Of a DNA stretch of 64,000 nucleotides, positions 3,042-47,980 are shown one piece after another. Under the pieces are notes generated by a model. The model ran no database searches. It was not told where the DNA came from and saw only the letters and a program-made list of their open reading frames with translations. Position 1 is the stretch's first letter; each line of letters begins with the position of its first letter. The position numbers were made by a program, and so were the translations under genes. Source of the DNA: an uncultured bacterium (lineage in GTDB: Bacteria; Desulfobacterota_D; UBA1144; Nemesobacterales; UBA2774); contig CAVPJU010000001.1 in NCBI GenBank assembly GCA_963705505.1, positions 160,001 to 224,000 of the forward strand, read 5' to 3'.

Positions 3042-3680
3042 ATGAAGTGCGTCAGCTGCGGGAATAGGAAAGCGAAGAGATATTGTCCTGCGCTCAGGGC
3101 GTCGATATGTCCCGTGTGCTGCGGGGAGAAAAGGGGCGTCGAGATCAATTGTCCTCTCGACTGCATGTATTATGTCGAGGGGCAGAAACATCAACAGCTT
3201 AAGGTAATGCATCAGAGAATTCGCAAGGAAGGGGCGGTCAGCTACGTGCGCCGCGCGGAGCTCTATAACCGGAACCCCGAGGTTTTCGCGAGAATAGAAA
3301 AGATTTTTGCGGATGCATTCCGCTCCGACAGGAGACTCAGGAACGAGGATACGGTTTCAGCCCTTGAGCTCGTAAAAAGCACGCTCGATACCGAGAAGAA
3401 GGGTCTTATCTACCAGCATCAGAGTGAAAACAGCTTTGCGAACGAGCTCTCGACCAGAATGCTCATAGCCTTGACCGATTTCAAAGACAGCCCGGACATA
3501 CGGGAGGACAGGGTAACGATAGATTTTGCTCTGAGCGTGGTGGAAGAGTTCCTAAAAGAAGCGAGGTTCTTCATGGAGCACGATTCGAATCCGCAGAGCT
3601 ATCTTATTCACATTTTGCGGTATCACCCGGAAGAAGAACCCAAGCCCGGGAGACAAAGCGAGCTTATCATTACTCCGTAA
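3042..3680 (+). CDS. Hypothetical protein with N-terminal 8-Cys putative metal-binding domain
   Basis: CVSC..CPA..ICPVCCG..CPLDC within the first 41 aa; starts 9 nt after the mutase small subunit. Confidence 0.8.
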   Translation: MKCVSCGNRKAKRYCPALRASICPVCCGEKRGVEINCPLDCMYYVEGQKHQQLKVMHQRIRKEGAVSYVRRAELYNRNPEVFARIEKIFADAFRSDRRLRNEDTVSALELVKSTLDTEKKGLIYQHQSENSFANELSTRMLIALTDFKDSPDIREDRVTIDFALSVVEEFLKEARFFMEHDSNPQSYLIHILRYHPEEEPKPGRQSELIITP

Positions 3681-6174: not shown

Positions 6175-6999
6175 TTAAATCTCGACTCTGAACAGTCCCT
6201 TAAGGGCGAATCCGAAGACAATCGATAATACGAAAACGACGACGAGCCAGTGGACGTGCCATTTCAGTATGCCGACCGAGCCCGCGGGATAATCGATCCT
6301 TATCTGCTCCGCCAGAGAATTTTCAGGCAGGGGCTTTTGTGCGGGGTTCAGCAGTTTATCCCAGAGGCTCGATGCCGACGCCTCGGGTGAGATTTGTACG
6401 AGGCCCTTTTCGGAGACTAAGACTTTCTGCCGGATCTCCTCGCCTGACACGTTGAATGTGAGATCGTGCGCTCCCGTTTCTTTAGCCCGGATCCTCCAGT
6501 CTACTTCGTTCTGATCGGGAATTCTTAAGGGAGGAGTTTCTATCGTAATCCCCTTATCCGAAGTGAGTCTGACGTCCGGAAGCTGCTCACTGCCGCCGTG
6601 GAGCTTGAGGGACACTATCGCCGATTCGTCCGGCCTGAGGGGTCTATACCCGTACCAGCTGTCCATTTGAATCAGGATAACAGCAAGCGGTATCATCATG
6701 AACAGCATAGGCTTTACGGCATACTTGATGTATCTGAGGTTGTATATAAGGATGTTCTTCTGCGATGACAGCACTATCCCTATTTCGTCCTTGAAGAGAC
6801 TGAGCTCGAAAATATAAGCCCTGATTTTGTTCTTGGTCTCTCTAATCTTCTGCTGGTCCGATGTGTAGCGGAAAATTATGAGCATTATGATTCCGATAAT
6901 GAGAGAGAAGAGGGCCAGCGACCATAGGGGGTCGATATTTTTGAACGGTGTAATGAGAATGCCGAATAAGCCGCTCATCGCGGAATTAAATTGCCACAT
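6175..6999 (-). CDS. Membrane protein, DUF106/EMC3-TMCO1 (Oxa1 superfamily)-like, with inserted soluble beta domain
   Basis: TM1, then a basic coiled segment (SDQQKIRETKNKIR), then KPMLFMMIP TM2, a ~130-aa soluble insert, and C-terminal W-containing TM3. Family assigned by pattern only. Confidence 0.6.
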   Translation of the reverse strand: MWQFNSAMSGLFGILITPFKNIDPLWSLALFSLIIGIIMLIIFRYTSDQQKIRETKNKIRAYIFELSLFKDEIGIVLSSQKNILIYNLRYIKYAVKPMLFMMIPLAVILIQMDSWYGYRPLRPDESAIVSLKLHGGSEQLPDVRLTSDKGITIETPPLRIPDQNEVDWRIRAKETGAHDLTFNVSGEEIRQKVLVSEKGLVQISPEASASSLWDKLLNPAQKPLPENSLAEQIRIDYPAGSVGILKWHVHWLVVVFVLSIVFGFALKGLFRVEI

Positions 7000-7088
7000 C
7001 TTATCCTTTATCTGCGGTCGATTAAATTTTATGAATAGGGTCCCGGCAGCCGTTCATGCATCAGCTAAAGCTCCGTATAGCTGCCTCT

Positions 7089-7289
7089 CTATTCGATATA
7101 CCCGAGTCCCTTTAACCTTTTGGCTACCTTTTCCTCGTCTTCGGGGGACTGTTTCTGCCCCTTTTTCAATTCCCTTTCGAGCGTATATGTTATAAATTCC
7201 TCAACCGACGTATAGCCCGATTCCTCCGCATATTTTTTGCATCTGTCGAGCAAGTCCTTATCCAGTTTGATCTTAGAGCCGCCGAACAT
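7089..7289 (-). CDS. Small CopG/RHH-like protein with C-terminal EEKVAKRLKGLGYIE tail
   Basis: 66 aa with a beta-helix-helix pattern (KIKLDKDLLDRCKKYAEESGYTSVEEFITYTLE); AGGAGGA RBS. Confidence 0.8.
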   Translation of the reverse strand: MFGGSKIKLDKDLLDRCKKYAEESGYTSVEEFITYTLERELKKGQKQSPEDEEKVAKRLKGLGYIE

Positions 7290-7318
7290 GAACCTTCCTC
7301 CTTGGATATATGTGCAAT

Positions 7319-9322
7319 TTATTTTCCGGGATTATCATCCGTAAATATATTATTTCCGATCATGCCTTCCTGCTTCGGGATTCCGAATTCTGCCAGTATA
7401 GTCGGGGCCAGATCGTAGAGAGCGGGTTTCTGCGACTTTATCTCCTTATTCGAAAGGAGGATTCCCGGCACCAGGTCTGCTTCCATCAGGTGGTCTCCGC
7501 TCCACTTCTGCTTGTTGTCCCTCAGTATGTCCTTCGGGAAACTGCCGAGCACGGTCTCCCAGGAAGCGCGGTACCCCTTATTGTAACCAACGATGAGATC
7601 GGGTGCATCCTTGAGGAAAGGACCGCTGTATACTTCCTCCGCTTTATATACCCTGGAAATTACCTGCTCTCCGGTCTTCGGGTCCCTTATGGAAAGAAGC
7701 TTTGCGGATATCTCGTCCAGCAATTCCTCTCTCTTCCCGGGCTCGACGATTCCTTCGAACTCCCTCCCCTTGAGGTTTAGAAAAAGGCCGTTAAAACCTA
7801 CTCCGTAAGCGCGTGTCCTGCCCCAATCGACGTTCTGGAAGAACTCGCCTTCCGCCTCATCTGTCAGGTACGAATATCCGTTATCCTTGAGCCACGTATT
7901 CAGGTTAAAAGCCCTGTAAAACGGGGCAAATCCGTGATCCGATAAGGCGATGACCGTGGTGTGGTCGTCGATATTGTCGAGGACCTTTCCCAGCACCCTG
8001 TCCATTTCGATGTAGGCGTTCTCGATCACGAGCTTCAGTTTGCTTCCTGAATCATAAGCCGGGTGCTTGGGGTCCATCGTGCGCCAGAACATATGGGAAA
8101 GCTGATCTACCCTGCCTATGTAGAAGAAGAGGAACCCTGAATTGAACTTCTTAAGCTCGAGATCGAGCATATCCTGCTCTTCGCCGAAGGCTATGTTCGT
8201 CTGATCGAGGAACTCGCCGTCTCCGAGCACATTTTCGGATAGAGCCTTGGAGTCTTCGGGGATGCCCTGGGTATAGTAAAGACCTATCTGCTTGACTATC
8301 CTCTCCGAATAATCCTTGGGTGTGGAAATCGGAAGGGCGGGGGCAGAGGGGTCGATATTCACGGGCGTGACATACAGTTTGAAATTCGGCCTCAGCTCTT
8401 TTAGGTAAAAGCGCGCGATGCCGCTCGCACTTTCCAGATAAGGAAGCAATTCATATTTTATTTTGATCCAGTCGCTCCACTCACCTTCCTTGAGTATTAT
8501 CTCCCTGCCCTGGACGGCTATCTTTGCGACCGGGTTCTCCGGGTCTATAAAAACGGTGAAGTCGACCCTGCTTTGAGGCGCATCTTTCTCGAATGTGTTT
8601 ACGGGTCCCGGAAGTTTGGCCCGGACTTTATTCCTGAAGACTTCGACCGGAAAAACCTTGCCGCCGGATGTTTTCTCGAATTTTCCGGTGTCCTCGTCGG
8701 TATAATAGGAATAAGTCCCGTATGTCCCCTGAATGTCGGGCGTTCCCATTCCCGAGAGCTGATAGGCCTTGCCGTCCACAGTGGGGAAATTCGCCGGCAC
8801 CCGGAATATGGTCGTAGGGATTCCTCTCTCCGTCAAATATTCCCAGAACGCTTTACCCTGGCGGAGCAAGGAAACCTTGCCCGATGACAGGGGAATCACC
8901 CAATTGCCGACCGTTATGGTTTTTTTAGCGGGCTCTGTCTTCGAAGTAGACAGATAAGGCGTAATACTTTCGGGGTCCCTGTGAATGAAGTCGAAGATAC
9001 CGTGCCCCCCCGGGTTCATGCCCGTAATAAAGTTTGACCAGGCAACAGGGCTCTGGGGAGGTATGCTCGTCGCAAGCGGCTTGAAACCCCCTGTTTCGGC
9101 CAGCTTCTTGAAGTTGGGGAGCTTCCCTTCGTCCATCAGTCTCTTGAGTATGTTAGGGTCCATACCGTCAAATCCGATGACTATCACCTTCTTATCCGTC
9201 CCCTGCGCTTTGGCCTGGGGCGGTCTGCCGTCCTCTCCGCATCCGGCGGAAACGACCACGGCGGCGATAAAGACAAAAATCAGCGCCATTTTAGCTATAC
9301 CGAATCTGGATTGTCCGCTCAT
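7319..9322 (-). CDS. Alkaline-phosphatase-superfamily phosphodiesterase/nucleotide pyrophosphatase (COG3379-like), predicted lipoprotein
   Basis: IGFDGMD, PPQSPVAWS (Ser nucleophile), SDHGF and SGDH motifs; lipobox VSAG-C. Alternative ATG at 9394. Confidence 0.85.
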   Translation of the reverse strand: MSGQSRFGIAKMALIFVFIAAVVVSAGCGEDGRPPQAKAQGTDKKVIVIGFDGMDPNILKRLMDEGKLPNFKKLAETGGFKPLATSIPPQSPVAWSNFITGMNPGGHGIFDFIHRDPESITPYLSTSKTEPAKKTITVGNWVIPLSSGKVSLLRQGKAFWEYLTERGIPTTIFRVPANFPTVDGKAYQLSGMGTPDIQGTYGTYSYYTDEDTGKFEKTSGGKVFPVEVFRNKVRAKLPGPVNTFEKDAPQSRVDFTVFIDPENPVAKIAVQGREIILKEGEWSDWIKIKYELLPYLESASGIARFYLKELRPNFKLYVTPVNIDPSAPALPISTPKDYSERIVKQIGLYYTQGIPEDSKALSENVLGDGEFLDQTNIAFGEEQDMLDLELKKFNSGFLFFYIGRVDQLSHMFWRTMDPKHPAYDSGSKLKLVIENAYIEMDRVLGKVLDNIDDHTTVIALSDHGFAPFYRAFNLNTWLKDNGYSYLTDEAEGEFFQNVDWGRTRAYGVGFNGLFLNLKGREFEGIVEPGKREELLDEISAKLLSIRDPKTGEQVISRVYKAEEVYSGPFLKDAPDLIVGYNKGYRASWETVLGSFPKDILRDNKQKWSGDHLMEADLVPGILLSNKEIKSQKPALYDLAPTILAEFGIPKQEGMIGNNIFTDDNPGK

Positions 9323-9404
9323 ACTAAGATCCGTATCCGAAATAAGCAACCATTGCTCTCCCTGCGGGGACCGCATGCCATATTTATTGTTCATTACGGG
9401 GTTT

Positions 9405-11621
9405 CTATACTGCCTTGGCTCTCTTTCTTTCCTCTGCGCCTGGTTCAACCCCCGCTCCCGGCAATACACGGGATTCGTCTTCGAAAATAGGCTTACCCTT
9501 CATATAGTTCGGTATATCCAGACCGAATAATTTGAGGACCGTAGGGGCCATATCGTTCAGGTGAGGGTTTTCCTTTATGATTTTACGGTTTGTGAAAATT
9601 ACGCCTGGAACTATTTTGGGGTCAACGCAGTGATCTCCGCTCCAGTGCTTCGTATTGTCCTCGAACACGTCCTCCGTCACGCGGCCCAGGGCGCATGTCC
9701 ACGAGCTTCTGTAACCGGCGTTGTAACCGACGAGCAGGTCGGGGGCATCGTGCTTGTATGGCCCTGACGAAGCTGAGTCCGTATCTATGACCTCACGTAT
9801 CGACACTTCGCCCGCAATTTCATCCCTGAGCCCGGTGAGCTTTCTTATAAGCTCGGCTTTCAAGCTCGTGACTTCATCCCCTTCCTCGACAAAACCCCTC
9901 ATCTCCCTTCCCTTTCTGTTTATAAATATACCCGCGAGTCCGAGGGAGAACGCTTTTGTCCTGTCCCAATCTACGTTTTCGAACCAGTCGCCGCTCGTCT
10001 TCTTGCCGTCCCTGAGAGCCATGTACCCGTTTTGAAAGAGCCAGCTGTTTAAGTTGACGCCCCGTTTGAACTGCGTGAACCCGTGGTCTGATATCACCAT
10101 CAATACTGTTTTATCATCGGTTTTTTCAAGCGCTTTCCCGATCAGTCCGTCCATTCTCACGTAGAGGTCCTCTATGACGTTTTTATACTTTTCCGTCTCC
10201 TTGCCTCTGTTTGCGGGGTGATTTTGGTCGAGGCAGCGGAAGAACATGTGCTGCACCCTGTCAGTCGTATCGAATACGCACGTGCAGAGTCCGTTAGGTG
10301 TTTTTTCAAGCGCGTTGAAAAACATTTTCTCCCTTTCCTCGTAAAGGAGGTAAGCCTGCTCCAGGAACGCCTCCTCGTCTATAACGCCTTCGTTAAGCGC
10401 CCACGTGTCTTCGGCGAGTCCGAGAGTGCCGAAGGAGCCCTGGAGTTTTGCGAGATAGACGGAATATATGAAGGGGTGGGATATGGGGAGGGCGGGCTCC
10501 TCTGGGTCGATGTTGATCGGCGTCACGTACATATCGAACCCGGGCTCTAGGCTGTTTATGTAGAAGCGGCAGATACCGCGGACTTTTATGCCCAGGCCCG
10601 CCGGGAATGCGAGCCTTATCCAGGGGGAGTACGTCCTCGGGGCGAGCTCGAAACGCTGGTTCGATATTTCGATGACGGCCTTCCCGGCGGATTTATCTAT
10701 TTTTATCCTGAGGGGGATCGTTATTTCTTCACCGTTTTTGACGAGGCTGTTTTCCGGGCCGTATAAAAGGGTGTTGACGACCCCGTTCTTTATTTCCACG
10801 AACCTGCTTACTCCGCCCGTTTCCACTTCGTTCTTATTCGGATCGGTCGTATAGTGGGCGAAAGTCCCTTGAGACCCCTTGAGGTCGGGCACGCACATGC
10901 CCGAGAGGAGAACCCCGTTAAACTTCTCAGGCGGGAACGTTATGGGTACCCGCAGGACCGAGCTCCATATCCCGTGCTCGCCGAGTATCTTCCAGAAGGG
11001 ACGGCTCTTTCTGAGGAGCTTCATCTTCGGCTTGCCGAGAGGGATCATGTACTTGCCTATGGGAAGCACCTTGGATGCTTTTCCGATCTCCGCTGAAGAA
11101 AGCATCGGCTGATATGTGCAGGGGTCCCTGGTTATGAAATCGAATATGTTATGGTAAGAAGGGTCGACCCCGGTCATGAAAGACGACCACGCGACGGGCG
11201 ATATGGACGGGTAGCTAGTCGCAAGAGAAGTGAAAGTCCCCTCTTCCTTTAATTTCGCAAAGTTGGGGAGCTTCCCCTCGTTCATGAACGCCCCGGCGAG
11301 CTTCGGGTCCATCCCGTCAAGCCCGATTATTATCACCCGTTTTACGCTGCTTTTTGTCCTAGAGCCTTTCCTTAATAAAGCCCTTACCAGATAGCGCAGG
11401 GGCCAGGAAAGGAGATAGAAGATTGCGAGGGCAAAGGATATTATTAAGAACATAAATGACGAGAGGAACGCGAAGCCCGCGCCGGGCCCTATGTATCCGT
11501 AGGCGCTGTCGGTGACACCCGAGTACACGGCAAGGGAAAAAACGAGTATCGCGATGAGTTTTTTAAAGATATTCCCCGGCATTTCGGTGGGTATTTTAAA
11601 GTACTTTTTGCGTGATGTCAT
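9405..11621 (-). CDS. Alkaline-phosphatase-superfamily phosphodiesterase (COG3379-like) with N-terminal signal peptide + YIGPGAG + TM anchor
   Basis: IGLDGMD, PSISPVAWSS, SDHGF and SGDH motifs; collinear paralog of 7319..9322. Confidence 0.87.
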   Translation of the reverse strand: MTSRKKYFKIPTEMPGNIFKKLIAILVFSLAVYSGVTDSAYGYIGPGAGFAFLSSFMFLIISFALAIFYLLSWPLRYLVRALLRKGSRTKSSVKRVIIIGLDGMDPKLAGAFMNEGKLPNFAKLKEEGTFTSLATSYPSISPVAWSSFMTGVDPSYHNIFDFITRDPCTYQPMLSSAEIGKASKVLPIGKYMIPLGKPKMKLLRKSRPFWKILGEHGIWSSVLRVPITFPPEKFNGVLLSGMCVPDLKGSQGTFAHYTTDPNKNEVETGGVSRFVEIKNGVVNTLLYGPENSLVKNGEEITIPLRIKIDKSAGKAVIEISNQRFELAPRTYSPWIRLAFPAGLGIKVRGICRFYINSLEPGFDMYVTPINIDPEEPALPISHPFIYSVYLAKLQGSFGTLGLAEDTWALNEGVIDEEAFLEQAYLLYEEREKMFFNALEKTPNGLCTCVFDTTDRVQHMFFRCLDQNHPANRGKETEKYKNVIEDLYVRMDGLIGKALEKTDDKTVLMVISDHGFTQFKRGVNLNSWLFQNGYMALRDGKKTSGDWFENVDWDRTKAFSLGLAGIFINRKGREMRGFVEEGDEVTSLKAELIRKLTGLRDEIAGEVSIREVIDTDSASSGPYKHDAPDLLVGYNAGYRSSWTCALGRVTEDVFEDNTKHWSGDHCVDPKIVPGVIFTNRKIIKENPHLNDMAPTVLKLFGLDIPNYMKGKPIFEDESRVLPGAGVEPGAEERKRAKAV

Positions 11622-11673
11622 TTGGGTCTGAAATAATTGTGGAACATCGATAGACCTTTTGTTAAACGGAGGC

Positions 11674-13734
11674 TCACTGAATGTAATTCAGGGCTTTGAG
11701 TTTCTCTTTTTTTTCTTCGTCGAGCTTGACCTTCTCTGTACCCGTAACACCCAGCTGCTCGATCAGCTTCTCTGATTCCTGATCATTATTTGTCAATATG
11801 TTCTTTGCCTGGTCCGTCCTCGATATATTTGAATTCAACGGCAGCGGATTCTGCTCTCCGGGATCGTCATTCAGATCGAAGAGCACGCCGTGACCGGTCA
11901 CGACATTTCGTATGTATTTATTCCCCTCAAAAATTACCCCTTCCCTGTTTTCGTAGTAGAGGAGTCCGGAGCTTATTAACGGCAGTTCGATAAAAGAATT
12001 GGGATTATCGTTCAGTAACGGGGCCAAGGATTCGGCTGTAAGAGTTTCGTTTTCGTTTTTTATACCGGTCAGTCCGATTACCGTAGCCATGAGGCTCTGA
12101 GTAGTGACCTTTTCCTCTACTATTTTCTTTGAATGCTCGCCGGGGAGTTTAATGATAAACGGGACATGGAGAAGCTCGTTGTAAAGAGTATGGCCGTGCT
12201 CGAACCCGTCATGGTCCCAGAACTCCTCCCCGTGGTCGCTAGTCAGGATAACGAGGGAGTTTTTATAGACACTGAGCTCCTTCATCTTATCCAGAAGCCT
12301 TCCTAATTCGTCGTCAACATAACGTACCTCGGCATTATAGAGCTCTCTGATCCATTTCCTCTGCGACGCGTTCGGGGCGAAATACCCTTCCCTGATGGGG
12401 GCCGCGGTCATGAGCTCGTATCCGATGTACTCGTCGGGCACGGCGTCTTTGGATATATATTGCCTGGGAGGGGCGTAAGGTATATGGGGGTCGTAGTAAT
12501 GTACCCACAGGAAGAAATCTTTATCCCGGTTCTTCTCCAGCCAGTCTATGGACAGGTCGGTCAGCTCTGTGGTCGAGGCGTAGTATATCAATTCCTTCGG
12601 GAATGCCGCGTTGATTAACGTCGCTCCGAAGGAGTTGATCAACGTTTGGCGTTTGGGGAAAAAATTATACTCGAGGAACCCCTGATCCATATTGAATTCG
12701 GGGTGGAGGAAGAAATTGTCTCCTATCGCCGCGGTGTAATAACCCGAGTCCCTGAGATATTCCGCGAGCGTTTTGAACTTATCGGGGAGTCTCGACTCCG
12801 CGGTGAATGTTTTGTGGACCGTAGGCGAGAGCCCGGTCATCATCGAAGCGAAAGAAGGCAGCGTCCACGGCGCAGCGGAGAACGCGTTTTTGAAGAGCGT
12901 CCCGTCCCCGGCAATCGAGTCTATGTTCGGGGTGGATATGTCCTTGCTGCCGTAGCTCGATAGAGCGTCTGCCCTCAGTGTGTCGATGCTGATTAATATC
13001 ACGCGTTTGATCTTGTGGTCCGACGAGCCTTTGAAATTATTAGCGGGCGGCTCATATTTGTCTTTCGTGCTTACAAACACTACCGGGCAGACTACGAGGG
13101 CTACGAACATTAATACACAGAGGGGGATTATCGTATTGAATTTGGATTTTACGAAAGCAAAGAATAGTCCGAGCGTCAGGAGGGCTATTGAGAAAAACCC
13201 CAGGGACAGATCGTAGTCCGTATACTCGCCGTGCTTATTGAGCCAGATGAGTATCATGATCTCTGTGAGGAGGAGTGGGACCAAAAGGCTCAGCATGGAG
13301 CCCGCGAGTCCGCCCTTCTGAGACCGGCTTATTCTTTTTGCCGCGTAATATGTTACAAAGAGGGCAAGGGTCGAAATAATGAGGAAGATTAAAAGCTCCT
13401 GGAAAAAACTCTGACCGGGCGTGTTGAAATCGTAATAGTTTATCGAGATCAGCAGTATCGTCACACCGATGAATACCCCTAATGATATTGCTGCTGCGAT
13501 CTCGTCCAATCCGAACCCCTTTACCAGCCTGGCTCCGATCAAGAACCATAAAGCTAAAAAAAGAATGAAGGAAAACCCCGCTGTTACGGCGAATGGGAGT
13601 AAGACCGATCTGAACAAAAGGAATCTGGCTTCCGATGTGACCGTCCCTATCGATACGTCGAGAACGCCCGCCGAGAGACAAATGGTCAGTCCGATTATTA
13701 TTATCTGCCTGATCGAATAGCTGGATTTCTGCAT
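11674..13734 (-). CDS. Multi-TM sulfatase-like hydrolase/transferase (Thr nucleophile)
   Basis: About 6-7 N-terminal hydrophobic segments; ISIDTLRAD, PWTLPSFAS, DPHIPY, SDHGEEF and EHGH motifs; tail KEKLKALNYIQ. Confidence 0.87.
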   Translation of the reverse strand: MQKSSYSIRQIIIIGLTICLSAGVLDVSIGTVTSEARFLLFRSVLLPFAVTAGFSFILFLALWFLIGARLVKGFGLDEIAAAISLGVFIGVTILLISINYYDFNTPGQSFFQELLIFLIISTLALFVTYYAAKRISRSQKGGLAGSMLSLLVPLLLTEIMILIWLNKHGEYTDYDLSLGFFSIALLTLGLFFAFVKSKFNTIIPLCVLMFVALVVCPVVFVSTKDKYEPPANNFKGSSDHKIKRVILISIDTLRADALSSYGSKDISTPNIDSIAGDGTLFKNAFSAAPWTLPSFASMMTGLSPTVHKTFTAESRLPDKFKTLAEYLRDSGYYTAAIGDNFFLHPEFNMDQGFLEYNFFPKRQTLINSFGATLINAAFPKELIYYASTTELTDLSIDWLEKNRDKDFFLWVHYYDPHIPYAPPRQYISKDAVPDEYIGYELMTAAPIREGYFAPNASQRKWIRELYNAEVRYVDDELGRLLDKMKELSVYKNSLVILTSDHGEEFWDHDGFEHGHTLYNELLHVPFIIKLPGEHSKKIVEEKVTTQSLMATVIGLTGIKNENETLTAESLAPLLNDNPNSFIELPLISSGLLYYENREGVIFEGNKYIRNVVTGHGVLFDLNDDPGEQNPLPLNSNISRTDQAKNILTNNDQESEKLIEQLGVTGTEKVKLDEEKKEKLKALNYIQ

Positions 13735-13832
13735 GTTTTCTATATTATTCCCATCCGGTCATACCGGAGTCAATTTTAAACGAGCTAGAATTTGTCCGGG
13801 AGTTCACGAACGGTTAAATTCTAAATTCCTAT

Positions 13833-15263
13833 CTAATCCCATATCCTCTTTAATCTGCCGAATATACCCTCGTCCTTAAAGCTGGTCAGGCTCTTCCCAT
13901 TAGTTTCGCCTACTAATTTCATTCCGTAAAGGTCGAGCACAGTGGGAGCTATGTCATAAATACCGATGCCCTCCTTATAGCCCTGCTCCAGGTTCCCGGC
14001 TTTACATCCGTATTCATTCATGATGAATATTCCGTTCCAGTCGTGGTTAGCTTCATCCGAACCCGTATCGTTTTCGAACGTATGGATTCTGCCTGCGCCC
14101 ACGCTCCCGACGGAGCGCCAGCCGAGTCCCCCGAAATAGACGATAAGGTCGGGCGGGACTCCGTTCACTTCCCTGTAAATATCCTCCGGTCTGTATGCCC
14201 TCGTGCCGATGTCCTCGCCGTCGGGTCCCGGGATCGCCTCGATCTTGCGGATGAGCTCAGTGCGGATTTTTTCATAATCGCCCGGGTCTACTATACCCTC
14301 GGGCTCCCTTCCCCTGACGTTCATAAAGAGTCGCCCGTAATACCCGCCGTCCCCCCACGCGAGCGTTTTGCTCCAGTCTATCTCCACGTCGGCGATCCTG
14401 GTCTGCTCGGCAGGATATTTTTTAAGAGTCAGATACCCTTCCTTTATAAGCCATTCGTTAAAGCAGATACCGCCTTCCATCTTCCGCGCCCCGTGATCCG
14501 ATACCACGATCACGACCGTATCTTCGGGGACGAGCGATAACAGCTCTCCTACTTCACGGTCGCAGTACTTATAATATTCCTTTATAGAATTCTCGAACGG
14601 GTTCCCCGGCTCGAATTTCCTGTGCTCCGGGTCGATGAAGCTCCAGAACCCGTGATGGATGCGGTCAGTCCCCATCTCGACGAGCATGAAGAAGTCCCAG
14701 GGTTTGGTCTTTATGAGGTGCTTAGCGACCTTGAAATGCTTTTCGGTCTTTTCGTAAATTCTTCCGAGGAGCGCTTCCTTGTCGTCCGTTCGGAAATTCT
14801 CGACGTCGAGAACGTATCCGCCCGATACTTCCTCTATTTCATCTTTAAGGGGGGCGGGGTAGGTGTAGTTGCTCTCGGTCGAAGGGGCAAGGAACCCGCT
14901 CACCACGCAGCCGTTCACGGCCTTGGGCGGATAAGTCTGAGGGACGCCGAGGATAATTACCTTCCTGCCCGCGTTTGAGAGTATGTCCCACACCCTGTCG
15001 CATTTAACCGCCGTCGCGTTAGCAATTGTGTATCCGTCGTATGAGTAGTCCTTTCTATTTCTGAACCCGTAATACCCGAGCTGACCGGGGTCTTTCCCGC
15101 TCATCATTACAGCCCAGGCGGGGACTGTTATAGGGGGGTGGCACGATAAAAGAGGCCCGTAAGCCCCATTTTCCATGAGTTTTTTGAGGTTAGGAAGTTC
15201 GTCCTTCCACCCGAACACGAACCTCGGGTCGGCGCAGTCAAGCCCTATTATCAGAAGCTTCAT
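13833..15263 (-). CDS. Cytoplasmic alkaline-phosphatase-superfamily phosphodiesterase (COG3379-like)
   Basis: IGLDCA, PPITVPAW (Thr nucleophile), DRIHH, SDHG and ANH motifs; no signal peptide. Confidence 0.88.
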   Translation of the reverse strand: MKLLIIGLDCADPRFVFGWKDELPNLKKLMENGAYGPLLSCHPPITVPAWAVMMSGKDPGQLGYYGFRNRKDYSYDGYTIANATAVKCDRVWDILSNAGRKVIILGVPQTYPPKAVNGCVVSGFLAPSTESNYTYPAPLKDEIEEVSGGYVLDVENFRTDDKEALLGRIYEKTEKHFKVAKHLIKTKPWDFFMLVEMGTDRIHHGFWSFIDPEHRKFEPGNPFENSIKEYYKYCDREVGELLSLVPEDTVVIVVSDHGARKMEGGICFNEWLIKEGYLTLKKYPAEQTRIADVEIDWSKTLAWGDGGYYGRLFMNVRGREPEGIVDPGDYEKIRTELIRKIEAIPGPDGEDIGTRAYRPEDIYREVNGVPPDLIVYFGGLGWRSVGSVGAGRIHTFENDTGSDEANHDWNGIFIMNEYGCKAGNLEQGYKEGIGIYDIAPTVLDLYGMKLVGETNGKSLTSFKDEGIFGRLKRIWD

Positions 15264-17231
15264 TCACTGCTTCCTTCTTCTGAGGAAACTTAGCGCCGTT
15301 ACAAATGCCGGAATTAGCAGAATCAAACTGTTTGCAAACGCAGTCCCTCCGATATCGGCGCCGGCAGGACCGTAAATAGAGCATCCGCCTCCGCCGTCCG
15401 AGTTATTGTTTCCGGGGGGAGGAGTAGGCGTGGGTGTGGGTGCACTGCCGATTGCTTCCTCCACAGCGGCAAATGCGTTTATGCTCCCGAATCCCGATAT
15501 GTTATCGAACCCCGCTGGTGAGAGGTCCTCAGCCGTGCCGGTCAGTATATCCGTTACCTCCTGCACCTGCCTCGCGGCGACGAGGCCCGAGTCTTCGGCA
15601 TTAGAGGACGCTATGTCGGCTCCGAAACCGAGGGCCTGCAGCACGAGCGCTGCGACTCCCGCCGCGTGGGGAGCGGCGGCGGAAGTGCCGGCAAAGTTAA
15701 AGAATCCCGGAACGCTCGTGGATACCCTGTTCGGGGCAACGATGGTCGGCGTTTGCCTGTCCTCGAGAAGCGGTGCGGCTCTTTCGGACGGGACGCTTGA
15801 AACCGTCACCGTCGGGGAAAAGAAGATCGACGACGGACCTTCGGAGCTGAAAAAGTCCACAGCGCCATTGAATGTGGCTCCCACGGATATCACACCGGGG
15901 GCCGCCGGATGGCCGTAAATACTGTTTTCGGGGACGTTGAATTCTATTGGGCTTCCGTCGAGGTTAAAAAAGATTTCGAGCGTCTGAGCTTCTCCGCTGA
16001 ACTTGTTGACGACGATATCGTAGAAAAGGGTTTCTGTATCATCGGGGTTTTGCACGGCAGCGATTTCGATCGGATCGTCATCCCCATTTTGCACGTCGGT
16101 ACCGCTATCGATTATATCCGCCGTATCGGAATCGACGAGAAACAGGTCGTAATCATCAGACGCCTCTCCGAAGGGGTTTGACCACTGCAGTACGACTACG
16201 GAACTGCTGAGGGGAGGGACTTCGACGGTCATGCCGACGTCGCTCGCTTCGCCCGCCGCGAGGCCGAAGTCGTGGAGCTCGTTTTCAGTGTCTTCCGGGT
16301 CCGTGTCACGGAAGAGGGCCTGGTAATGCCTGTCGCTGTCATTGCCCGCCGCTGAAACGAATATTATTCCGTCCTCTACCGCCTGTGCCGCCGCCTGTGC
16401 GACGGAGCCGTCCTGGAAGAAAGGCTCGTCGAGAAACCCTATGTCGTCGATTATCACGTCGACGCCGTTATTTCTGAAGAAATCTATTGCGTCTATGAAG
16501 TTCAAGGTAGTAGTTCCGTTGTGAAACGCAAGGTCCGCCCCCGGAGCTATGTCGTGCACGATTTCGAGTATGGCAGTCCCCTCGTCGCCGCTCCCAGGGT
16601 CACCCACCTGTACGGAATCCGGGAGGTCTCCCGTCATTTGGGATGCAGCCATGCTGTCGACTCCGTCTGATATCACGCCTACCTTTATTCCCGAGCCGTC
16701 CACACCGAATGTGTCCCTCGCCTCATCCGAGCCCATTATCCCGTCCCCTTCGGTCGTTACGGAGCCTTCTCTCGTGTGCCCGTAGCTCGGAGGGGTGATT
16801 TTGGAAACGAAACCCAGCTCCGTTGCCTTTTCTATGCTGTCATAGGGGAGCCAGCCCTGAACGATTTTCAGGTTTTCATTAATGACCTCAGAGATTAAAC
16901 CCAGCCCGTTTAATCTCTTGAGATTCTCATCGCTGAATTCGCTCAGGTGAACGTAAACTTCTATATTCCCGGCATTGTCCACCTTTACGAGCGGGGTCGA
17001 TAAATCTTCCGCGCTCAGGCTTTGGATATTGTTTCTCGATACACCCATGTCGGCCATTTTATTAAGGACTTTGGTCAGCCTCGGGCTTATTTTGGAATTG
17101 AGGCTCAGGTTCTTTTTCTGGTCTCTGAAGCCTCTACCGTCGAGATCCTGAAGGGCCGATGTGTCGGGGGCGAGTTCGGGAATCAGGGAGGTCGTGCATA
17201 GAATTACAAGTGTGAAGAGGGCTTTTTTCAT
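15264..17231 (-). CDS. Secreted S8 (subtilisin-like) serine peptidase with C-terminal GGGGC-TM-RRR sorting signal
   Basis: Signal peptide; GVISDG, DEGTA and GTSAAAPH motifs; PTPTPTPPP linker; GGGGCS...LILLIPAFVTALSFLRRRKQ. Confidence 0.88.
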   Translation of the reverse strand: MKKALFTLVILCTTSLIPELAPDTSALQDLDGRGFRDQKKNLSLNSKISPRLTKVLNKMADMGVSRNNIQSLSAEDLSTPLVKVDNAGNIEVYVHLSEFSDENLKRLNGLGLISEVINENLKIVQGWLPYDSIEKATELGFVSKITPPSYGHTREGSVTTEGDGIMGSDEARDTFGVDGSGIKVGVISDGVDSMAASQMTGDLPDSVQVGDPGSGDEGTAILEIVHDIAPGADLAFHNGTTTLNFIDAIDFFRNNGVDVIIDDIGFLDEPFFQDGSVAQAAAQAVEDGIIFVSAAGNDSDRHYQALFRDTDPEDTENELHDFGLAAGEASDVGMTVEVPPLSSSVVVLQWSNPFGEASDDYDLFLVDSDTADIIDSGTDVQNGDDDPIEIAAVQNPDDTETLFYDIVVNKFSGEAQTLEIFFNLDGSPIEFNVPENSIYGHPAAPGVISVGATFNGAVDFFSSEGPSSIFFSPTVTVSSVPSERAAPLLEDRQTPTIVAPNRVSTSVPGFFNFAGTSAAAPHAAGVAALVLQALGFGADIASSNAEDSGLVAARQVQEVTDILTGTAEDLSPAGFDNISGFGSINAFAAVEEAIGSAPTPTPTPPPGNNNSDGGGGCSIYGPAGADIGGTAFANSLILLIPAFVTALSFLRRRKQ

Positions 17232-18264: not shown

Positions 18265-20778
18265 GTGCAGAGGGATCTCCTTACAGTCCACGTAAAAAAC
18301 AGCATCAGGATCAGCATAGAAGAGGCCTCGGGAAACGAGGTCTTTTTCGTAGGCTCCTTTACGGAGGGGAGCGTCATCGATGACGTGCGGGTCGTCTCGC
18401 GCGGGAACGGATATTCCGTCCCGGCGGTGATCGATTCCGCATTGCCGGGGGAAGTCGTCATTCACAACCACCCTTCGGGGAACCTCACCCCTTCCGATCA
18501 GGATATACAGATCGCTTCCGTATTCGGCAATCAGGGAATCGGCTTTTACATAGTGGACAATAGCGCCTCCCGCGTATACGTGGTCGTCGAGCCGTTCTCT
18601 GAGAAAGAATTAGAGCCCCTCGACATGGAGAAAACGAAGGAATTCCTTCTCCCTGACGGCGGCGTTTCGGAATTGATGGGTGATAAATACGAGCTCCGGG
18701 ACGAACAGCTTCAAATGCTCGAAGCCGTCGCCGGGGCATTTAATGACAACCTGATTTCGCTCATAGAAGCCGGGACGGGTACGGGTAAGACGCTTTCTTA
18801 TCTGATACCGGCCGCCGCGTGGTCCATTCAGAACGGCGAGAGGGTCGTCATTTCGACTAATACGATCAATCTCCAGGAGCAGCTCATAGACAAAGATATA
18901 CCGCTCGTGCATAAGGCATTTAACGGGGAATTCAATTATTCCCTCGTCAAGGGTATGGGCAATTACCTCTGCCTGCTGCGCACTGAGACCGTACAGGACG
19001 GCCTCTTCGAGATCGCCGACGAGGACGAAGTGGGCACGATCTCGAATATTCTCGAATGGGCCAAGGTCACGGTGGACGGGTCATTATCCGACCTCAGCTT
19101 CAGTCCGCCCGACGACGTGTGGGACAAGGTCTCGGCAGAGAGCGACAGCTGCCTCAGGGCGAGGTGCCCTTATTACTCACGCTGTTTTTTTTATAAGTCC
19201 CGGAGGGAGATCGCTTCCTCGCAGCTGCTCGTCGTAAACCATCACCTACTATTTTCCGACCTCTCCATAAAGGGGGCGTCGGAAAAGAGCGACGCGGGCA
19301 TTCTTCCCCCGTTCAAAAGAATAATTTTCGATGAGGCGCACCATATAGTGGACGCCGCCACGTCCCACTTCGGAATGAGGGCTACGAAGTTCGGGATTAT
19401 CAGGATACTCCGGCGTATGAAAAGGAGGGGAAAAGGTGGAGAATCGAAGGGGCTCATCTATTATGCCGCGTCCCTCGCGACCAAGCTCGTGAGGATCGTC
19501 AGGAAAGGGATAGTCAACGATGTGCTCAGGAGAGTGGAGCAGAACCTTTCTCCCAGGATCGACGCCGCGGAAGAATATGCCGCCGACGCGTTCGATGCCT
19601 TATATTACTTTTCGCTCTCCCTGATGCAGGAAAAGGAGCCCGAAAGCCAGGAGGTGAGCCTCAGGATAACGGAGGGAGCATTTGCATACGAAGGGTGGGA
19701 GCAGATAGACAAGAAGTTCTCGATACTGAGGATAAGGCTTAAAGAGCTGCATGAGGAGATTAAGTCATTCACTGATTTCTTGCTCGATTACGAGACGGAG
19801 AGCGATTTCGCAAAGCTCATAGTCGAGTTCAGGGGGGTGGCCAATAAGCTCGATTATTATTCGGACGTGATCGCGACGTTCCTGAGCCGGGAAGACGATG
19901 GTTTCGTGAGGTGGGTGGAAGGGAGGATGGGCAGGGGTGCCGTCGTGTCGGGGCTCGGGCTTTCCCCGCTCGATATCTCCCAGCCGCTCAGAGAGAGGCT
20001 CTATTCGAGGTGCGACACGGTCGTAATGACTTCAGCGACGATGGCCGTAAGGAGGAGCTTCGAATTTATCAAGTCGGGGCTCGGTCTCATGGATGATGTC
20101 AGGGTAACCGAGCTGATACTCCCCTCGCCGTTTAATTACGAGGAACAGCTTCTCCTTGCCATACCGACGGATATGCCCGAGCCGGGTACGAGGGAGTACT
20201 CGGCGAATATCGCTCCTCTCATACTGGAGGCTGTAAGGGTGTCTCAGGGGAATGCCCTTATTCTATTCACCTCGTACTCGCTCCTCGAAAACGTGTACAG
20301 GAAAGTTTACGAAGAGCTCGAATCGTCAGGCATCCTCACGCTCAAGCAGGGCGCTCTCCCGAGGGGGAGGCTCCTCGATAAATTCAGGGTCGAGGACGGG
20401 TCTGTCCTTTTTGCCACAGATAGCTTCTGGGAGGGCGTGGACGTGCCAGGCAACGCGCTCAGGCTAGTCGTGATTTCGAGGCTCCCGTTCAGGGTACCCA
20501 CGGAGCCGATTATAGAAGCCCGCGTCGAGCATATGGAGAGCATGGGCCTGAATTCGTTCACCGAATACAGCGTCCCCGTTGCGGTGCTTAAATTCAAGCA
20601 GGGGTTCGGGAGGCTCATCAGGACCCGCAGCGACAAGGGGGTCGTGCTCGTGCTGGATAAGAGGATAATCAGCAAATTCTACGGGAGATACTTCCTCGAT
20701 TCCCTTCCCGAGTGCGGTCAGCTAATAGATAGTTCTCAAGAGGTGATATCCGGGCTTGAAAAGTTTTTTGCGGGATAG
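18265..20778 (+). CDS. DinG/YoaA-family Fe-S helicase with N-terminal JAB/RadC-like domain
   Basis: N-terminal NEVFF...HNHPSGNLTPSDQD; EAGTGTGKT, DEAHH, Fe-S cysteines (NYLC, CLRARCPYYSRC), FWEGVD and QGFGRLIR. Confidence 0.92.
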   Translation: MQRDLLTVHVKNSIRISIEEASGNEVFFVGSFTEGSVIDDVRVVSRGNGYSVPAVIDSALPGEVVIHNHPSGNLTPSDQDIQIASVFGNQGIGFYIVDNSASRVYVVVEPFSEKELEPLDMEKTKEFLLPDGGVSELMGDKYELRDEQLQMLEAVAGAFNDNLISLIEAGTGTGKTLSYLIPAAAWSIQNGERVVISTNTINLQEQLIDKDIPLVHKAFNGEFNYSLVKGMGNYLCLLRTETVQDGLFEIADEDEVGTISNILEWAKVTVDGSLSDLSFSPPDDVWDKVSAESDSCLRARCPYYSRCFFYKSRREIASSQLLVVNHHLLFSDLSIKGASEKSDAGILPPFKRIIFDEAHHIVDAATSHFGMRATKFGIIRILRRMKRRGKGGESKGLIYYAASLATKLVRIVRKGIVNDVLRRVEQNLSPRIDAAEEYAADAFDALYYFSLSLMQEKEPESQEVSLRITEGAFAYEGWEQIDKKFSILRIRLKELHEEIKSFTDFLLDYETESDFAKLIVEFRGVANKLDYYSDVIATFLSREDDGFVRWVEGRMGRGAVVSGLGLSPLDISQPLRERLYSRCDTVVMTSATMAVRRSFEFIKSGLGLMDDVRVTELILPSPFNYEEQLLLAIPTDMPEPGTREYSANIAPLILEAVRVSQGNALILFTSYSLLENVYRKVYEELESSGILTLKQGALPRGRLLDKFRVEDGSVLFATDSFWEGVDVPGNALRLVVISRLPFRVPTEPIIEARVEHMESMGLNSFTEYSVPVAVLKFKQGFGRLIRTRSDKGVVLVLDKRIISKFYGRYFLDSLPECGQLIDSSQEVISGLEKFFAG

Positions 20779-23110: not shown

Positions 23111-25544
23111 ATGACAATGCCGTCTCAAATACTGCCTGTCAACATCGAAGACGAGATGAAGGAGTCTTATCTCAGTTATTCGATGAGTGTAATCATCGGG
23201 CGCGCTCTCCCGGACGTAAGGGATGGCCTAAAGCCCGTGCACAGGCGGATCCTCTACGGGATGGAGGAGGCCGGGAATCAGTGGAACAGGCCGTATAAGA
23301 AATCGGCGAGGATAGTCGGAGACGTGATGGGTAAATACCACCCCCACGGCGACGCCGCTATCTACGACGCGCTCGTCAGGATGGCGCAGGATTTCTCGAT
23401 GCGCTATACACTCGTCGACGGTCAGGGTAATTTCGGCTCGATCGACGGCGACCCGCCTGCGGCGATGAGGTACACGGAGGTCAGGCTCGACAGGATAGCG
23501 AGTGAGATGCTCGCCGATCTTGAAAAAGAGACCGTGGATTTCGTACCCAATTATGACGGCGGCGAGAAGGAGCCGCTCGTGCTCCCGGCGAAGATACCGA
23601 ACCTGCTCTTAAACGGCTCATCGGGTATCGCCGTCGGGATGTCGACCAACATCCCCCCTCATAACCTGAGCGAGCTTATAGACGCTATAATCGCGCAGGC
23701 CGGGAATTCCGATATTACGCTCGATGAGCTGATGAAACACCTTCCGGGGCCCGATTTCCCGACGGGCGGATTCATTACGGGCAGGAGCCCGATAAGGGAG
23801 GCTTACGAGACTGGCAGGGGAATTATAAAGATAAGGGCAAAGGCCAGAATTGAGAGGCAGAAGAAGGGGGATAAGGAAATCATAATCGTGAGCGAGATAC
23901 CTTACCAGGTCAACAAGGTAAAGCTCATAGAGCGCATAGCCGAGCTCGTTAAGGACGAAAAGATAAAAGGCATTTCCGATATCAGAGACGAGTCCGACAG
24001 AGAGGGGATAAGAATAGTCATAGACATAAAACGCGGCGACAACGCCGACGTCGTACTGAACCAGCTCTACAAGCACACGCAGATGGACACCTCCTTCGGG
24101 ATTATAATGCTCGCCCTCGTCAGGAATCAGCCGCGTGTCCTTTCGCTCAAGGAAACAATAAGCCACTTCATAGAGCACAGGAAAGAGGTCGTAACCAGGC
24201 GCACGCAGTATGAATTGGGGAAGGCCGAAGAGAGACTGCACATACTGGAAGGTCTCAAGATAGCGCTCGATCATCTGGACGAGGTCATCGCGCTCATTCG
24301 TAAGTCCTCAAGCCCTCCGGAAGCAAAAGACGGGTTGATGCTCAAGCTCGGACTCTCCGAGCAGCAGGCCCAGGCAATACTCGACATGAGGCTCCAGCGC
24401 CTGACCGCACTCGAGAGGGACAAGATAATCGAGGAAAGAAAGGAGCTCATTAACACGGTAAAGCGTTTGAAGGAGATACTCGAGCAGGAGCACCTCATAC
24501 TCGGCATAGTCACCGACGAGCTGAAAGAGATAAAAGAGAAGTACGGGGACGAGAGGAGGACGGAGATACTCGAGAGCTCGGAGGAAATATCCATAGAGGA
24601 CCTCATTGCCGATGAGGACATGGTCGTCACTACGACTCACGACGGTTATATAAAGACGACCCCGTTGAGCATCTACAGGAGTCAGAGGAGGGGCGGCAAG
24701 GGCAGGACCGGGATCACGACGAAAGAGCTCGACTTCGTTGAGACCCTCTTCATAGCGTCTAAGCACAACTACGTTTTATTTTTTACCAACCTCGGCAGGT
24801 GTTACTGGATAAAGGTCCACGAGATACCCGAAGCCGGTCCCACTGCAAGAGGGAAAGCGCTCGTCAACCTCCTGAGTCTCTCCGAAGGGGAAAAAGTCGC
24901 GGCGGTGCTCCCCGTGAGGGAATTCAAGGAAAGCCAGTATATCATCATGGCCACGAAAAACGGGATCGTGAAGAAAACGAAGCTGATGGCCTATTCCAAC
25001 CCCCGCGTGGGCGGGATCATAGCGCTTAATATCAGAGAGGACGACGAGCTTATTACAGGCCAGGCTTACGAGCGGCAGCGATGAGATACTCCTCACGTCT
25101 TATTTCGGCCAGGCCATAAGGTTCGAGGAAGACGATGTGAGGGATATGGGGAGGACGGCTACGGGCGTCATAGGCATCAGGCTCGACGAAGGCGATCAGG
25201 TCGTAAGCCTTGAAGTGATAGAGAACCCCGAGGCGCAGGTCCTTACCGTGACCGAAATGGGTTACGGGAAGAGGACGCTCGTCTCTGAATACAGGGTTAC
25301 GGGGCGCGGAGGGAAGGGTGTGATCACCATTAAGACCACCGGCAGGAACGGCAGGGTCGTGGGCGCATTTCAGGTTACGAACGATACACAGATCATGATA
25401 ATTACGACGCACGGCGGGAAGGTAATAAGGATGAACGCGTCCGAGATAAGCATATTCGGTCGAGGGACTCAGGGTGTGAGGCTTATCGGACTCGAGCCCG
25501 ATGAAAAAGTGGCCGCCGTGGCAAAAGTAGTGGAAAGGGATTAG
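23111..25544 (+). CDS. gyrA: DNA gyrase subunit A (apparent +1 frameshift at ~25058)
   Basis: [26 protein letters not shown] and GyrA-box QRRGGKG; deleting one base in ACAGGCC joins ORF 23111..25084 to 25137..25544 ([14 protein letters not shown]...[13 protein letters not shown]). Confidence 0.96.
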
Positions 25545-42013: not shown

Positions 42014-42592
42014 ATGAGAAAACGGATAACACTGCTTTTGCTGCCTATACTGTCTCTTTTTATTTTTCTGGGTCTATATTTTTTCGACTTCAGCGCTCAA
42101 AGCAGCAGCCAGGGTCCGATTCAGCCTATAAGGTTCAGTCACAAAATCCATGCCGGCATGGACAACACTCAGCTCCCCTGTCAGTACTGCCACAGTTTCG
42201 TAGACGTATCTCCGAACCCCGGAATACCTTCGGTTAAAAAATGCATGGGGTGCCACACGCACATAGCGGGGCGCGATGTCGAATACGATTTTGACGGGAC
42301 GACTATAAATATCATGAATGAAATAGGTAAAGTCAGGGATTATTGGGCGAAGAAGGAGCCGATTCCGTGGAACAAGGTAAATTCTATGCCCGGGTATGTC
42401 CACTTTACACATAAGAGGCATATTCAGCGCGGGTTCGAATGCAAGGCGTGCCATGGGGATGTAGCAAATATGAATCAGGTCTATAAGGTCGAGAGGCTCA
42501 ACATGGGATTCTGCATAACCTGTCATACGCAGAATGCGAAGGACCATGAGCAGCTGACTCACCTTAAGGACTGTCTCACGTGTCATTATTAA
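42014..42592 (+). CDS. actA: Alternative complex III pentaheme cytochrome c subunit
   Basis: N-terminal TM, QPIRFSHKIH, five CxxCH motifs (CQYCH, CMGCH, CKACH, CITCH, CLTCH). Confidence 0.9.
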   Translation: MRKRITLLLLPILSLFIFLGLYFFDFSAQSSSQGPIQPIRFSHKIHAGMDNTQLPCQYCHSFVDVSPNPGIPSVKKCMGCHTHIAGRDVEYDFDGTTINIMNEIGKVRDYWAKKEPIPWNKVNSMPGYVHFTHKRHIQRGFECKACHGDVANMNQVYKVERLNMGFCITCHTQNAKDHEQLTHLKDCLTCHY

Positions 42593-42604
42593 TTGGAGGA
42601 GGAA

Positions 42605-46878: not shown

Positions 46879-47380
46879 TCAGGGAGTTCTGGGAATATTC
46901 TCTTACCTCGACCTCACGGTTAATGCCGTAAAGAAACTGAAGGAAGAGGGTTTCAAAAATCTGCGTGTTTTTTCCCCCGTGCCGAACCATGAGATAGAAC
47001 ATGCCGTGGGGGCTCCTGAGAGCATCGTGCGTTTCTTTACTCTCTTCGGCGCCATGCTCGGCGCTGCCTGCGGTGTCGGTTTTACGGTCCTGACATCTAC
47101 GGATTGGCCTCTTCCGGTAAGCGCAAAACCGATCGTGTCGTTACCCCCTTACATAGTAATAATATTCGAGCTCACGATCCTCATGGGCTCGCTTTCGACC
47201 CTTCTCGGGCTGCTAATTAATTCCCGTCTCAGGCGGAACGCTCCGACGAACATGTATGACCCCAGGTTTTCCGATGATAAGTTCGGCATAATGGTTACGT
47301 GTAACAGGGATAAGGTGAAGAAGGTCGAGGAGATTCTAAATTCCCAGGGGGCTGAAGAAATAAAATTCGACGGGGTTTGA
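46871..47380 (+). CDS. actD: Alternative complex III subunit D (DUF3341)
   Basis: FSPVP, two TMs, KP..S.P....FELTIL and YDPRFSDDKF. Confidence 0.9.
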   Translation: MDNQGVLGIFSYLDLTVNAVKKLKEEGFKNLRVFSPVPNHEIEHAVGAPESIVRFFTLFGAMLGAACGVGFTVLTSTDWPLPVSAKPIVSLPPYIVIIFELTILMGSLSTLLGLLINSRLRRNAPTNMYDPRFSDDKFGIMVTCNRDKVKKVEEILNSQGAEEIKFDGV

Positions 47381-47979: not shown

Positions 47980-47980
47980 T

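Follow-up and report, generated by a model that had tools for sequence, protein, structure and literature searches.

A conserved four-gene core of alkaline phosphatase-superfamily enzymes and an Oxa1-superfamily protein as a candidate sulfuryl relay across the bacterial inner membrane

We analysed a stretch of 64,000 nucleotides (the window) of an uncultured bacterium of the Nemesobacterales (GenBank assembly GCA_963705505.1, contig CAVPJU010000001.1, positions 160,001 to 224,000; assembly of 2.88 Mb, 93.6% complete), and focused on a run of seven genes that includes four enzymes of the alkaline phosphatase (AlkP) superfamily. The conserved unit in this run is a core of four genes in fixed order, namely tm738, lp667, s66 and m274, and two other genes, cyt476 and sulf686, are movable modules beyond it. 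The cargo is probably sulfate. We lean, if only somewhat, towards reading the locus as an outward relay that is fed by 3'-phosphoadenosine-5'-phosphosulfate (PAPS) or adenosine-5'-phosphosulfate (APS) and passes sulfuryl groups across the inner membrane for sulfating envelope molecules.

The locus and its conserved core

The first-pass annotation had described seven co-oriented genes with close gaps, and all seven open reading frames (ORFs) do lie on the reverse strand where it had placed them (Table 1), with gaps of 0, 98, 52, 82, 29 and 89 nt between S8, cyt476, sulf686, tm738, lp667, s66 and m274, in this order. It had also assigned different locations to the four AlkP proteins. The hydropathy and charge of the sequences, from which all protein locations were taken, agree with this: cyt476 would be soluble, sulf686 a multi-transmembrane (multi-TM) protein facing outside, tm738 anchored and facing inside, and lp667 a lipoprotein.

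Table 1. Features of the seven-gene run, in window coordinates
Feature	Position	Strand	Description
S8 protease	15264-17231	-	Pfam Peptidase_S8
cyt476, input module	13833-15263	-	soluble NPP-like AlkP enzyme, Pfam Phosphodiest, nucleophile T46
sulf686, output module	11674-13734	-	7-TM, Pfam Sulfatase, nucleophile position T291
tm738, core	9405-11621	-	signal-like segment, YIGPGAG, 1 TM, basic stretch and NPP-like AlkP domain, Pfam Phosphodiest, S141
lp667, core	7319-9322	-	lipobox paralog of tm738, Pfam Phosphodiest, S91
s66, core	7089-7289	-	66 aa, LGY tail, Tyr64
m274, core	6175-6999	-	DUF106/Oxa1-superfamily 3-TM membrane protein
YIGPGAG motif of tm738 (residues 43-49)	11475-11495	-	Tyr43 after AxA/AxG signal-peptidase-like site
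LGY-type C-terminal tail of sulf686	11674-11706	-	L-x-x-L-N-Y, Tyr684

A scan of GTDB contigs confirmed 135 relatives of m274. The best 80 of these 135, mostly from Dadabacteria and Aminicenantes, made up the first locus set, in which the loci with at least 5.2 kb upstream (n=60) were informative for the order of the core. For the Planctomycetota we retrieved 35 of the 37 loci with E<=1e-30, and 29 of these regions were informative. The order tm738-lp667-s66-m274 was complete in 60/60 informative loci of the first set, in 27/29 of the Planctomycetota and in 3/3 of a small third phylum; in a few first-set loci additional sulf686 paralogs sit within the core. Thus the homologs of the core genes, whose co-occurrence the first-pass annotation had proposed to check, are kept together in fixed order in several phyla. 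The Planctomycetota had an m274 match in 40 of 301 genomes, with one copy in each (37 of the 40 at E<=1e-30), the small third phylum in 5/5 genomes and the order-level relatives of the source genome in 19/41.

The set of seven genes as a unit, as proposed at first, did not hold. An S8 protease was near the core in 8/58 first-set loci, 0/25 Planctomycetota loci and 0/3 loci of the third phylum, so we rejected it as a component of the system; it is a local neighbour outside the conserved core, and here it is probably co-transcribed. Regarding the sorting tail that had been ascribed to this protease, its elements (GGGGC, a TM segment and RRRKQ) are present in the sequence, without confirmation by any family model.

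The proteins of the cassette

The two large core enzymes, tm738 and lp667, are 41.5% identical and look like a mirrored paralog pair on opposite sides of the membrane. The first-pass annotation had asked whether all catalytic domains might fall on the same side, and hydropathy, charge and N-terminal signals placed these two on opposite sides. The catalytic domain of tm738 would be inside because a signal-like segment and one TM segment are followed by a basic stretch, and lp667 would be outside because of its lipobox. The TM segment and the basic stretch were always present in the tm738 homologs examined. YIGPGAG was found in 93 of the 96 tm738 homologs above 500 bits (the other three are truncated where their contigs end, and one locus enters the count twice), nearly always with YIGPG directly after an AxA-like site; alignment A3, whose rows were chosen by the motif, would be circular for this purpose. 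Since an AxA-like site precedes YIGPG, the usual signal-peptidase and positive-inside rules suggest that mature tm738 would start with Tyr43 on the outer face, and we propose this residue as a putative trans-membrane shuttle.

Among 85 listed N-termini read by eye, the exported lp667 homologs carry a lipobox, a twin-arginine (Tat), Sec or anchor signal, those of other phyla having Tat- or Sec-export signals. The catalytic Ser and the metal motifs are conserved in both families (in 26 sampled rows the lp667 nucleophile was Ser 25 times and Thr once), and the conservation of the YIGPG and LGY tyrosines equals that of the catalytic residues. cyt476, tm738 and lp667 all match PF01663 over the cut-off, with the Ser/Thr nucleophile and the ligands of two metals intact, the ligands being assigned by the NPP motifs. 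They therefore share the Pfam family and the two-metal motifs of the NPPs (presumably COG3379); however, tm738 and lp667 exceed cyt476 by about 200 residues and the solved NPP relatives are distant. Among solved sequences, lp667 had only weak matches, the closest being to NPPs and phosphonoacetate hydrolase (best E 0.004), and a solved relative of cyt476 was not found at E<=0.001. A complex prediction of lp667, m274 and two Zn with residues 43-90 of tm738 as partner, run without folded controls, gave a score of 0.01 and a mark of 0.32, which weighs neither for nor against an interaction.

We assign m274 to the DUF106/Oxa1 superfamily. The first-pass annotation had called it DUF106/Oxa1-like, which is visible through its relatives only: PF01956 matched 6 of 109 members of the family (best E 1.4e-6) and the family profile matched archaeal MJ0480 (E 1.6e-8), while the sole Pfam match of m274 itself was FAM209, below the cut-off. 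The predicted model (pLDDT 97) has a 3-TM core with a cytoplasmic coiled coil and an extra immunoglobulin-like (Ig-like) domain on the outer side. Foldseek returned Ig-like matches only and missed the Oxa1 core, which a wide structural search recovered; its top match was chain 8 of 7tut, a multipass translocon (Z 11.5, root-mean-square deviation 3.6, 136 residues aligned; next row Z 8.1), which is probably TMCO1, given its length, and YidC reached Z 7.5. The 3-TM core and the cytoplasmic coiled coil are thus shared with archaeal DUF106 (MJ0480, 5c8j), TMCO1/EMC3 and YidC; unlike these, m274 is bacterial, has the inserted outside Ig-like domain and belongs with a single enzyme cassette instead of serving insertion in general. 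The family comprises 2418 clusters at 50% identity (E<=1e-10).

Neither s66 nor cyt476 has a hydrophobic segment, and both would be soluble. s66 ends in an acidic helix followed by the C-terminal LGY tail; it matched no family in Pfam or NCBIfam, and all of the 120 homologs listed end in a GY tail. The source names of its homologs and an atlas neighbour at 0.89, 27% of whose members have PF01402, offer a lead, and only a lead, that s66 may be ribbon-helix-helix-like (RHH-like). A DNA pattern for LGY before a stop codon, with matches counted by hand over 301 Planctomycetota genomes, found 116 matches in 37 core-positive genomes (79 when one s66 per genome is subtracted) versus 99 in the 264 others; 24 of the 37 core-positive genomes had at least two matches and 64 of the 264 others had any. 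The reversed pattern, used as a control, matched 123 times in the 301 genomes. We sampled the owners of the tails from 150 listed of 215 matches. Of 40 core-positive tails, 34 were sulf686-like, none was soluble NPP-type and 6 were other or unmatched; the 38 core-negative tails comprised 15 sulf686-like, 13 soluble NPP-type, one Sat-CysC and 9 unmatched. Therefore the core accompanies exported tailed enzymes, whereas soluble tailed enzymes manage without it, and those of two core-negative genomes lie in flippase/glycan gene clusters.

We also observed LGY-type tails on APS kinase and CysD (L067:3651-4250, L045:1699-2499 and L061). Another owner is a signal-peptide protein of about 165 aa without Pfam family (L126:5269-5763, L129:5359-5853, L133:12140-12628 and L118:10639-11166), whose gene is oriented divergently to the sulfate genes that lie upstream of the core; it is a candidate outside counterpart of s66.

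The catalytic domain of sulf686 would lie outside, because of the basic loops among its seven TM segments. Its domain was matched by 5628 of 8000 scored candidates, and the tail was checked in the best 120. The first-pass annotation had given sulf686 an LGY ending; the actual tail is LNY, and across these 120 homologs the tail Tyr is always present while the preceding residue varies among G, N and D. The motif TxPx(F/V/L/I/M/T) was found in 113/120, the other 7 not being parsed by the pattern, and both the Thr at the formylglycine position and the tail Tyr are invariant in 101 rows. The nearest folds are sulfatases and phosphonate monoester hydrolase (TM-score about 0.73). Thus formylglycine sulfatases (S1) and phosphonate monoester hydrolases are the closest in fold and sequence; nevertheless, sulf686 lacks the (C/S)xPxR that formylglycine sulfatases require, with Thr and TxPx(F/V/L/I) in place of Cys/Ser and CxPxR, and differs from S1 sulfatases also by the 7-TM anchor and the LGY-type tail. 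Because Thr is unable to become formylglycine, sulf686 should transfer rather than hydrolyse. Sulfatases with a Ser or Thr substitution trap a sulfo-enzyme, and aryl sulfates are good donors; a search of the open-access literature returned no paper on the trapped sulfo-serine intermediate.

LtaS and EptA share the multi-TM anchor, the outside AlkP domain and the Thr nucleophile with sulf686. However, membership of these families was rejected because the NCBIfam matches are weak and partial (23.7 bits versus a cut-off of 970 for LtaS, 29.2 versus 561 for EptA), and neither is among the listed best fold matches. Both enzymes use lipid phosphodiester donors.

The link to sulfate and the proposed relay

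Co-occurrence with APS kinase or sulfotransferase genes was another check proposed by the first-pass annotation. ATP sulfurylase (Sat) and/or CysC genes were in the region of 17 of the 25 Planctomycetota loci with room for them, in 16 of them immediately upstream and in the same orientation, and the number rises to 20/25 if P-loop sulfotransferase and CysQ-like genes are included; the CysQ-like protein near the core scores below the CysQ cut-off, and the other sulfate-gene families were confirmed. We estimate the chance rate of such adjacency at 1-2%, from the 1-4 APS-kinase matches per genome. In three loci (L067, L139 and L140) one run contains a second RHH-LGY gene, Sat, a cyt476 ortholog, CysC with an LGY tail, a second soluble AlkP gene and the core, and in L045 and L061 CysD and CysN precede a soluble AlkP gene and the core. 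Two Aminicenantes chromosomes have Sat, a cyt476 ortholog and CysC as an operon separate from the core with an LGY match ahead, which in L241 was read as a 71-aa RHH-LGY ORF. Thus, at other loci, orthologs of cyt476, which is 53% identical to the L067 protein and 47% to that of L241, are flanked by the genes of ATP sulfurylase and APS kinase.

The soluble enzyme upstream of the core varies: it may be of the cyt476 type, a 431-aa AlkP (46/58), STM4013-like (10/25) or a P-loop sulfotransferase, whose gene adjoins the core in 1/58 and 3/25 loci. This variation suggests that the soluble enzymes are interchangeable or serial loaders. None of the seven cassette proteins has a P-loop Sulfotransfer_1/3 domain in Pfam. 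The STM4013/SEN3800-like AlkP, soluble, of 315 aa and below the family cut-off, lies just before CysC and usually after Sat (L126:7615-8571 and nine other Planctomycetota loci). Another soluble protein of the source genome (G000:C10:410843-412366) resembles cyt476 at 24% identity and lacks an LGY tail; by eye, its gene is in a glycosyltransferase/flippase cluster.

In the first-pass annotation the locus was a relay moving a phospho- or sulfo-group across the inner membrane. The group can be narrowed to sulfo and the paralogs appear to face opposite ways. The gene order, the folds, the conserved residues and the links to sulfate genes are observed; the topology, the direction, the donor, the acceptor and all the transfer steps are inferred. 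The first step would fall to a soluble AlkP enzyme, cyt476 in this genome and other soluble enzymes elsewhere, which would accept sulfuryl from PAPS or APS and pass it, via the LGY-tailed s66, to Ser141 of tm738. The group would cross the inner membrane with the aid of m274 and arrive at Ser91 of lp667, which would charge exported LGY-tailed enzymes of sulfatase fold such as sulf686 (Thr291), and these would sulfate glycans or glycoproteins of the envelope.

As the chemistry of this relay we prefer, tentatively and with more doubt than confidence, tyrosine O-sulfate. The LGY tails would be portable sulfuryl carriers on both sides, and the Tyr of YIGPG at the mature N-terminus of tm738 would move through the groove of m274, so that an Oxa1-family protein flips a sulfated N-terminus. 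tm738 and lp667 would be ping-pong enzymes of the same kind, each exchanging sulfate between the Tyr of an LGY tail and that of YIGPG, and this would account for the presence of paralogs on opposite sides. A word look-up for such a shuttle returned nothing.

Several observations weigh against a sulfate relay. The genomes counted are kin, so the counts are not independent. Two-metal NPP-type sites, as in cyt476, tm738 and lp667, normally attack phosphorus and here would attack sulfur. In the AlphaFold model of sulf686 the tail has a pLDDT of 75 dropping to 60 and docking is not shown. Only 4 of the 58 first-set loci have sulfate genes within about 5.5 kb upstream or downstream of the core. Neither Sat nor CysD was found in the source genome, which carries CysC (G000:C10:57532-58134), a CysH-like gene (G000:C6:799101-799880) and three P-loop sulfotransferases away from the core; Sat was found in 0/25 genomes of the source family and CysD in 0/41 of the source order, where CysC occurs in 39/41 genomes, including those of 1.2-1.4 Mb, and Sat in 6/41. 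As this gap is lineage-wide and includes core-less genomes, it weakens the sulfate reading without singling it out, and this lineage may possess an unrecognised source of APS. In G352, an assembly of one chromosome, the core and 11 LGY matches are present, and searches for CysC, Sat and CysD gave no match. Finally, the 15 sulf686-like tails of core-negative genomes belong to 8 genomes, six with another lp667-like gene (E<=1e-90), one borderline and one without.

Among the other explanations, an outward sulfate relay with a prenyl or prenyl-aryl lipid as the carrier seems unlikely to us. Here tm738 would load the lipid, m274 would scramble it and lp667 would unload it, LGY and YIGPG being docking or assembly motifs, and indeed LGY-like ends on CysC and CysD are easier to understand as a tag than as a carrier. 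Insertases are reported to scramble lipids through their groove (bioRxiv 10.1101/2023.09.01.555937). Furthermore, in core-less genomes UbiA, DUF92 and epimerase genes are followed by the gene of an lp667 relative (37% identical) that is exported by Tat or Sec: of 11 core-negative regions retrieved, four were read and three had the exported relative beside UbiA, a hint that the UbiA-linked relatives are a lipid-carrier version of the relay. However, no prenyltransferase gene was conspicuous among the recurrent core neighbours in the first 80 loci (60 largest clusters, by eye), and the Tyr is invariant while the neighbouring residues vary, which fits chemistry better than docking alone. Rather unlikely, too, is that only the sulfatase-fold enzymes move sulfate, and that the NPP-like ones do phosphorus chemistry, clearing PAP, APS or PAPS on either side of the membrane or moving a phospho or nucleotidyl group, with m274 as the insertase of tm738. 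NPPs hydrolyse nucleotide anhydrides, and the intact two-metal motifs of the three enzymes and the nearest, if weak, solved sequences of lp667 are in line with this; on the other hand, it leaves the supply of activated sulfate to exported transferases, the fixed four-gene order and the two invariant tyrosines unexplained, and CysQ-like PAP phosphatases already adjoin several loci.

We consider improbable an inward relay, in which outside sulfatase-fold enzymes strip environmental sulfate esters and pass sulfate in for APS/PAPS or assimilation. It would suit the source lineage, in which CysC and a CysH-like gene are retained although no ATP sulfurylase can be recognised. Nevertheless, many core loci bring their own ATP sulfurylase, and of the 22 order-level relatives without an m274 match 16 also have no Sat match and none has CysD, so the core cannot be a general substitute for ATP sulfurylase and we rejected an inward relay as the remedy for a missing one. 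Moreover, sugar sulfates lie far below PAPS in transfer potential, and the archaeal enzymes Agl30 and Agl31, described below, work in the synthetic direction. That the locus is a chance cluster of redundant hydrolases, which the first-pass annotation had already denied, is very improbable: the generic database names (sulfatase, phosphodiesterase) would allow it, but the fixed order across phyla, which largely refutes it, the single copy of m274 in 40/40 Planctomycetota matches and the link to sulfate activation do not fit.

In the three core-negative regions with UbiA, the lp667 relative follows UbiA at L230:3261-8741, L231:2169-8303 and L232:6695-10005, and L230 and L231 also have DUF92, an NAD epimerase and an unnamed TM protein.

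As to known systems, no published description of the cassette was found in the open-access literature; it looks undescribed as a system, with folds that are known and a precedent for the last step only. This precedent is Agl30 (VNG1056C) and Agl31 (VNG1057C) of Halobacterium salinarum, sulfatase-like AlkP-superfamily proteins; according to the available text of PMC11980604, N-glycan sulfation is lost on their deletion and appears in Haloferax on their expression. Their C-termini, LEDLGYL and LEELGYT, were read by hand from the cloning primers in Table 1 of that paper. The likeness to sulf686 therefore rests on the fold and the primer-encoded LGY-type tails, shared also with s66, and not on a full-length alignment. 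The same available text names no sulfate donor (PAPS, donor and phosphosulfate are absent) and, in contrast to what we see in our cassette, mentions no relay across the membrane, no pair of paralogs and no partner of the Oxa1 family. In DltX and PatA, a terminal Tyr motif is reported to take acyl groups over from an enzyme in the membrane and bring them to a Ser enzyme on the outside (PMC12148441). DltB/DltX/DltD and PatA/PatB share with the relay the logic of a cytoplasmic donor, a conserved terminal Tyr motif as shuttle (microprotein or fused) and, on the outside, the modification of an envelope polymer by a Ser enzyme. This is an analogy only, since those systems have MBOAT and SGNH proteins, FxYxxF and an acyl group instead of AlkP folds, an Oxa1-family protein and probably sulfate; no MBOAT or SGNH Pfam family was found among the seven cassette proteins.

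There is no good explanation of how bacteria manage to sulfate polymers beyond the cytoplasm, in a space without PAPS synthesis; the relay, if true, would offer a route open to testing and point to a way in which enzymes of the Agl30/31 type could be supplied with a donor. Many annotated 'sulfatases' of Planctomycetota, Acidobacteriota and Dadabacteria would then build rather than degrade sulfated glycans, genome-based readings of sulfur cycling would change, and group transport would become the role of a large branch of bacterial proteins within the Oxa1 superfamily. If the tyrosine version is true, one cassette would supply several exported 'sulfatases' per genome that are sulfotransferases.

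Other features of the window and the genome

The GyrA ORF at window 23111-25084 (+) ends at 657 aa versus about 800 model positions, possibly due to a frameshift or an assembly error, and a sulfatase at G000:C10:497466-499312 is likewise in pieces. A DinG/YoaA-like helicase at window 18265-20778 (+) has a short RadC-like JAB match at its N-terminal end. The genes at window 42014-49225 (+) look by their sequences like those of alternative complex III. Finally, a 212-aa protein at window 3042-3680 (+), with an N-terminal Cys-rich motif and without Pfam or NCBIfam family, lies between RNase R and genes for methylmalonyl-CoA mutase, a position conserved in 11 related loci.

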